DNA from: Escherichia phage WG01
Strand: one strand, 5' to 3'
Sequence record: NC_031928.1
Length of the DNA stretch: 64,000 bases
Shown here: positions 39,397 to 40,058 of the stretch, one piece after another
Layout: each line of letters starts with the position of its first letter
Numbering within the stretch: position 1 is the first letter of the stretch
The notes under the pieces: generated by a model
Told to the model about the DNA's origin: nothing
The model's input: only the letters and a program-made list of their open reading frames with translations
The model's database searches: none
Position numbers and translations under genes: made by a program

Positions 39397-39606
39397 TTAT
39401 TTTAGCCATGAAGAATTTTCAGAGACCCAGCTATCTATATCTGATTGAGGGCCAAAGAAGTAGGCAACCCCATTAGATAACTCTCCTGAAAGCCAATTTA
39501 TACCTTTCAGGCTTTCTTTAAATTCTTCAGGAGTACAAGAAACCTCTATTGCCACCGAAGAGGCGGATTCCATTGCTTCCGTTAAGAATTCGTTGTAGGT
39601 TTTCAT
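39397..39606 (-). CDS. internal-protein-like packaged protein (CTS-tagged, 69 aa)
   Basis: N-terminus [10 protein letters not shown]; ATG overlaps 57B stop. Confidence 0.6.
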
Positions 39607-40058
39607 TTTAAATCCTCGGCCCAGTCGAGCTTCAAGGGTTCTTTATATTCTCTGTCTAAAACAACAGGAATCTGGACATCTCCACTAAAGGTAAGCGGTC
39701 CTACATTATAAGACAGTGTGATATGAGGGGTATAATCATCAAAATCGTGCGTAGCACCTAAGGTACGAGCATACTGATGGCGGCATTTAAGATACTCTGA
39801 ATTGAGAACCAATACCAGGACAGGAGAATCACCGTGTTTCCACACTTCAAGATGTCCTGACGAAGCAACTTCAAAACTTCCGGATGCAACGGTGTATGGA
39901 ACGTTGACTCTTGAATAGCAGATTGTAGAATGGAATTTTTCACGAGGAACTGGATTAGGAACCTTTAAAGTGCGCTGAAGGTTTTCCAGCGCATCTAAAG
40001 TTAATTCAGAGAATTTTGCAGCAACGTATAGACCTTGAGCAAAATCTTCGGTTTTCAT
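39603..40058 (-). CDS. 57B: 2H-phosphoesterase, Acb1-like (T4 gene 57B)
   Basis: 151 aa; two H-x-T/S motifs (HSTICY and HITLSY) typical of the 2H fold; immediately upstream of 57A as in T4. Confidence 0.7.

Follow-up and report, generated by a model that had tools for sequence, protein, structure and literature searches.

The stretch of Escherichia phage WG01 DNA analysed here (64,000 nucleotides of record NC_031928.1, hereafter the window) contains on its minus strand an open reading frame of 151 codons that, in the raw sequence and in the list of open reading frames, starts with ATG and ends with TGA. The initial annotation had read this frame as encoding a 2H phosphoesterase of the Acb1 type with the motifs HSTICY and HITLSY, and it was exact with regard to coordinates, length and both motifs. 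Upstream, in the direction of transcription, lie genes 1 and 57A, and downstream a set of four small genes that share an N-terminal leader; further features of the window, among them a homologue of acb2, are listed alongside these in Table 1.

Table 1. Position, strand and basis of assignment of acb1, its functional segments, its neighbours and other genes of the window discussed in the text.
Feature	Position	Strand	Basis or match
acb1 (gene 57B orthologue), 2H phosphoesterase, 151 aa	39603..40058	minus	ORF list and sequence
HSTICY, first catalytic motif, residues 43-48 (H43, T45 = T4 H44, T46)	39915..39932	minus	Sequence read and alignment; catalytic role from PMC9117128
HITLSY, second catalytic motif, residues 112-117 (H112, T114 = T4 H113, T115)	39708..39725	minus	Sequence read and alignment; catalytic role from PMC9117128
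C-terminal lid, residues 144-151 (LDWAEDLK), including stacking Trp W146	39606..39629	minus	Alignment; function from PMC9117128 and bioRxiv 10.1101/2025.08.21.671373
Gene 57A, tail-fibre assembly chaperone	40058..40303	minus	Pfam GP57, 98.5 bits; stop overlaps acb1 start (TAATG)
Gene 1, dNMP kinase, upstream in the same gap-free run	40296..41057	minus	Pfam DNMK, 300.7 bits
69-aa acidic (pI 4.2) leader-bearing gene	39397..39606	minus	phrog_23867, family without assigned function; ATG overlaps acb1 stop (ATGA)
73-aa basic leader-bearing gene, internal virion protein family	39097..39318	minus	phrog_8765
90-aa internal head protein (Ip9 of MX01, IME08)	38823..39095	minus	phrog_7673; MX01 annotation 'Ip9'
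102-aa internal head protein (Ip7 of MX01)	38454..38762	minus	phrog_2667; MX01 annotation 'Ip7'
acb2/vs.4 homologue, 92 aa	23604-23882	minus	PDB 7UQ2, E=2.4e-28; Pfam PF24729 (Acb2_Tad1_hairpin), 56.1 bits
Macro-domain protein, 155 aa	21711-22178	minus	Pfam PF01661, 32.8 bits
695-aa ORF, GTG start overlapping end of gene 5	45416-47503	plus	phrog_5296 (family without assigned function), full length

The Pfam profile for Acb1 (PF23474, gathering score 27 bits) matches the 151-aa protein with 197.9 bits (E=8.4e-59), residues 8-149 covering profile positions 1-144 of 144. The top match in a search of PDB sequences is 7T26, a crystal structure of Acb1 (E=1.6e-58, residues 9-148), and a BLASTP comparison with gp57B/Acb1 of phage T4 (NP_049750.1, genome NC_000866) finds 128 of 151 residues identical (85%), without gaps, at E=6e-100. 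These three matches bear out the assignment to the Acb1 type that had been proposed from the sequence, and similarity to the Acb1 family is far above chance level. The match to 7T26 spans 140 residues and places the protein, by sequence, in the 2H phosphoesterase fold, and we take this sequence match to a crystal structure as sufficient to assign the fold of WG01 Acb1; a single-sequence AlphaFold2 model was too poor to use (pLDDT 39, pTM 0.31). A search of NCBIfam with the same protein matched zero families, and a protein database search recovered full-length homologues in 1459 phage records.

T4 Acb1 has 152 residues and WG01 Acb1 151, with numbering offset by minus 1. For the T4/FBB1 enzyme, Hobbs et al. 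2022 describe a catalytic tetrad (H44, T46, H113 and T115), four aromatic residues that stack against the bases (Y12, W74, F107 and W147), a glutamate that contacts adenine N6 (E141) and a C-terminal lid formed by residues 145-152 (PMC9117128), the lid being needed for catalysis (bioRxiv 10.1101/2025.08.21.671373). When aligned to T4, all nine of the catalytic or ligand-contacting residues named in PMC9117128 are identical in WG01 at position minus 1. The initial annotation had proposed that the catalytic His motifs be compared with those of Acb1; when this was done, H43, T45, H112 and T114 fell on the four T4 tetrad residues in a gapless alignment. The ligand pocket (Y11, W73, F106 and W146, plus the adenine-specific E140) is likewise identical to its T4 counterpart, and the lid agrees at seven of eight positions (LDWAEDLK in WG01 vs LDWADDLK in T4), the single change, D149E, being conservative. 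The 23 substitutions that separate the two proteins lie mostly in the N-terminal nine residues and in two loops, at 56-58 and 75-80, the latter flanking the stacking residue W73.

Biochemical and genetic work has established that T4 Acb1 degrades CBASS signals, the phenotype of a T4 delta-acb1 mutant has been published, and nine further Acb1 homologues tested in the same study were all active (PMC9117128); a search of the supplements of that study for the names of Dhakavirus phages found none present. Both catalytic motifs also align with those of Acb1 from Erwinia phage FBB1 (7T26/7T27), which read HTTIVY and HITLSY where WG01 has HSTICY and HITLSY. FBB1 Acb1 differs from WG01 Acb1 by a one-residue indel in the 73-80 loop, and the stacking Trp that is W73 in WG01 and W74 in T4 is F in FBB1. 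Far more distant from WG01 Acb1 than either of these is 2H PDE-9 (PDB 9Q2G/9Q2Y, 'Anti-CBASS protein Acb1' structural group 3), a member of the same 2H fold family with weak similarity (E=0.018), whose second His motif aligns with that of WG01 Acb1 but which has its lid at the N-terminus instead of the C-terminus and spares 2'3'-c-di-AMP (bioRxiv 10.1101/2025.08.21.671373). The WG01 window belongs to the genus Dhakavirus (Tevenvirinae), as does Escherichia phage MX01, whose DNA is 96% identical across the acb1 region and whose ORF142 (YP_009324039.1) encodes a protein 100% identical to WG01 Acb1, although it carries the label 'RNA ligase' and not Acb1.

T4, MX01 and the WG01 window share the gene order 3, 1 (dNMP kinase), 57A, 57B, internal-protein gene(s), trna.4, trna.3, trna.2, so that the synteny bears out the assignment of the gene to the 57B position. 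The initial annotation had further placed 57B upstream of 57A, which is the case only in plus-strand coordinates; in the direction of transcription 57B follows directly downstream of 57A, with which it shares the TAATG overlap. In both T4 and WG01, acb1 sits between 57A and one or more internal-protein genes, although the two phages differ in the overlap at the 57A/57B junction (4 nt in T4 vs 1 nt in WG01) and in the number of internal-protein genes downstream (only ipI in T4 vs four in WG01). The flanking genes 57A, 1, Ip9 and Ip7 are the same in MX01 and WG01, except that the two leader-bearing genes between acb1 and Ip9 in WG01 (39097-39606) are both lacking from MX01. As regards 57A itself, MX01 has it annotated at 231 nt (4131-4361 of the MX01 record), compared with 246 nt (81 aa) from the first ATG in WG01; the match of the WG01 product to the Pfam GP57 profile begins at residue 1, and the start codon given for MX01 may lie too far downstream. 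We also note that the tRNA genes at 36899-37055 (minus strand) number only two (Arg-tct and Met-cat), where T4 has eight along with segB and two small RNAs.

Genes 3, 1, 57A, acb1 and the 69-aa gene are linked by successive overlaps of 1, 8, 1 and 4 nt. Joined in this manner, they leave no intergenic region that belongs to acb1 alone. Scans of positions 37000-42700 gave no signal either for sigma-70 promoters (21 promoter-like sites vs 17.3 expected) or for terminators (3 terminator-like sites vs 3.8 expected). Across the window there are 7 exact copies of the T4 late-promoter motif TATAAATA, where 7.6 would be expected; none stands directly upstream of acb1, the closest minus-strand copy (43029-43036) preceding gene 4. 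The pattern of a MotA-box middle promoter has zero matches in 38300-43100. A published expression atlas records T4 57B as expressed middle/late, and in WG01 acb1 would probably be expressed by read-through within the gap-free run 3, 1, 57A, acb1.

Between WG01 and T4, acb1 shows a dN of 0.146 with saturated synonymous sites and a nucleotide identity of 72%. Its amino-acid identity to T4 (85%) can be compared with 54% for gene 1, 53% for gene 3, 71% for gene 2 and 60% for 57A; trna.3 (63%) and trna.2 (50%) also fall below acb1, while trna.4 is level with it (85%). Purifying selection holds the gene under strong constraint, and it is not a decaying remnant: we rejected the notion of a pseudogene or decaying copy given its full length, its intact functional residues and the dN of 0.146 against saturated dS. 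The saturation of synonymous sites also argues against a recent transfer from a T4-like phage. Across the span of neighbours compared (37507-42566), conservation of acb1 relative to T4 is unusually tight for an accessory counter-defence gene.

The four genes that follow acb1 all begin with MK(S/A/T)Y(Q/N)EF(I/L)xE(A/S) and are otherwise unrelated. This leader is the capsid-targeting sequence borne by internal proteins of T-even phages, a diverse set of injected anti-restriction factors (PMC3012670; PMC12373910). T4 Ip1, Ip2 and Ip3 differ from one another in which GmrSD enzyme they block. Its presence in all four genes upholds the earlier description of acb1 as lying beside four packaged-protein genes, and three of the four match PHROGs named as internal head or virion proteins, the exception being the 69-aa gene. 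Across the window, the DNA signature of the leader has 9 matches vs 0.01 expected. The nine leader-bearing genes are all on the minus strand and form three clusters (25060-27302, 35989-36453 and 38454-39606). Of the eight leader-bearing proteins other than the 69-aa protein, six are clearly basic (pI 7.9-9.6), unlike the 69-aa protein with its acidic pI.

Five of the nine leader-bearing genes fall where the syntenic sequence of MX01 has no match (25006-25655, 35961-36708 and 39099-39604), and the internal-protein slots are for this reason best seen as fast-turnover cargo. The two genes nearest acb1, encoding the 69-aa and 73-aa proteins, are absent from MX01 and present in IME281, IME08, IME341 and EcWhh-1 at ~92% identity. 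Leader-bearing genes account for three of the larger stretches that are specific to WG01 when it is compared with the 96%-identical MX01. Of the two sides of the boundary with the internal-protein cargo, acb1 lies on the conserved one, and overlapping codons join it to the 3-1-57A block, which is conserved as well.

The initial annotation had suggested that acb1 and the adjoining packaged-protein genes mark a counter-defence hotspot. This is a reasonable description, although only partly apt, given that the adjacency is inherited, that leader genes occur at two other loci and that acb2 lies 16 kb away. The same point was made by Hobbs et al. 2022 for T4 acb1 beside ipI (PMC9117128), so that the idea is not new, and the adjacency of acb1 and internal-protein genes is ancestral synteny. 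The two loci away from acb1 carry five further leader-bearing genes. The vs.4 homologue, for its part, is a second anti-CBASS gene, Vs.4/Acb2 of T4 being a cyclic-oligonucleotide sponge; because it lies at such a distance, the hotspot is not specific to the acb1 locus.

We regard the ORF, with high confidence, as the Dhakavirus orthologue of T4 gene 57B and hence of Acb1, and infer the activity of this particular protein from that relationship. Neither the gene nor its location is new: it is the orthologue of a well-characterised enzyme in its ancestral position. By analogy with the T4 and FBB1 enzymes, catalysis, substrate range and an anti-CBASS phenotype would be expected to carry over to the WG01 protein, which by homology should be a small, metal-independent 2H phosphoesterase. 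The ligands of such an enzyme would be CBASS signals of the cyclic di- or trinucleotide type with one adenosine or more (3'3'-cGAMP, cUA, cAAA), and the C-terminal lid would presumably close over the bound signal. The two HxT motifs would then provide acid-base catalysis, cutting the 3'-5' bond on the 3' side of adenosine by way of a 2',3'-cyclic phosphate intermediate, and the second messenger would be removed before CBASS effectors kill the infected cell.

How else might the protein be read? The label 'RNA ligase', which RefSeq applies in MX01, T4 and many relatives and which also describes phrog_755, implies an enzyme of the LigT or 2'-5' RNA ligase type that joins or repairs RNA and acts on RNA ends instead of immune signals. 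There is some basis for this in that the 2H superfamily includes LigT and that PF13563 has a faint match to WG01 Acb1. However, this match scores 13.8 bits, below the cut-off of 27, and covers residues 69-122 only, compared with the 197.9 bits obtained for Acb1, and we rejected the RNA ligase reading on account of that sub-gathering score. The label is older than 2022 and reflects likeness at the level of the superfamily only, whereas the T4 orthologue degrades CBASS signals by both biochemical and genetic criteria, and WG01 retains the aromatics and the adenine-specific Glu that are suited to a cyclic dinucleotide. An RNA-repair function is therefore highly improbable. We give even less credence to the idea that Acb1 is itself packaged and injected, as a fifth member of the internal-protein array that acts at DNA entry. 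In favour of this, the gene directly abuts the set of four leader-bearing genes and shares bases of its stop codon with the start codon in one of them. Yet its N-terminus is without the MK(S/T/A)Y(Q/N)EF(I/L)xE leader present in all nine leader-bearing genes of the window, and it was on the absence of this leader that we rejected the reading. Moreover, cleavage at the N-terminus would abolish function, since Y11 there is a ligand-stacking residue, and the reported middle/late timing of T4 acb1 together with its activity in infected-cell lysate argue in the same direction. That WG01 Acb1 is a packaged protein is thus scarcely credible.

A refinement of the Acb1 assignment, as opposed to a replacement for it, would be that the enzyme is functional while substitutions in its core shift its preference away from that of T4, for example by sparing 2'3'-c-di-AMP and so avoiding Panoptes. 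T4 Acb1 cleaves 2'3'-c-di-AMP, and its over-expression activates Panoptes, a decoy-sensing system (bioRxiv 10.1101/2025.08.21.671373; PMC12657218); specificity is set by the PDE core and not by the lid (bioRxiv 10.1101/2025.08.21.671373); and the substitutions relative to T4 include the two loop clusters, one of them beside the stacking Trp, which could alter substrate preference. Against this, all known ligand-contacting residues are unchanged, and variation in the 75-80 loop occurs in FBB1 Acb1 too, an enzyme with activity on 3'3'-cGAMP. We consider such a shift unlikely. Similarly doubtful, though worth stating, is a broader proposal with two arms: either the two clusters of loop substitutions (56-58 and 75-80) give the enzyme a different choice of substrate (for instance so as to spare the 2'3'-c-di-AMP decoy and escape Panoptes-type sensing), or the 69-aa acidic gene encodes an injected counter-defence factor with a functional link to Acb1, together with which it is translated.

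Taking the ORF to be the orthologue of Acb1, we suggest that the gene is better labelled acb1 (anti-CBASS 2H phosphodiesterase) than 'RNA ligase', the RefSeq label of its identical copy in MX01. WG01 carries both acb1 and acb2, as does T4, which is relevant to the choice of therapeutic phages against E. coli strains that bear CBASS. Of more modest interest is that acb1 is better conserved between Dhakavirus and T4 than the nearby genes 1, 2, 3 and 57A, and that the internal-protein genes adjoining it turn over even between phages that are 96% identical.

Two further genes of the window deserve mention. The 695-aa ORF is a large protein directly after the baseplate spike gene and occupies the place that 5.1 and a PAAR-motif gene have in MX01; searched against Pfam, it shows no significant domain, with DUF6565 below threshold and a faint tape-measure-like match. 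The Macro-domain gene lies four genes downstream of a thymidine kinase-like ORF (20763-21335) and just upstream of the vs cluster, and its predicted domain suggests ADP-ribose-type signals or modifications as possible targets of the product.
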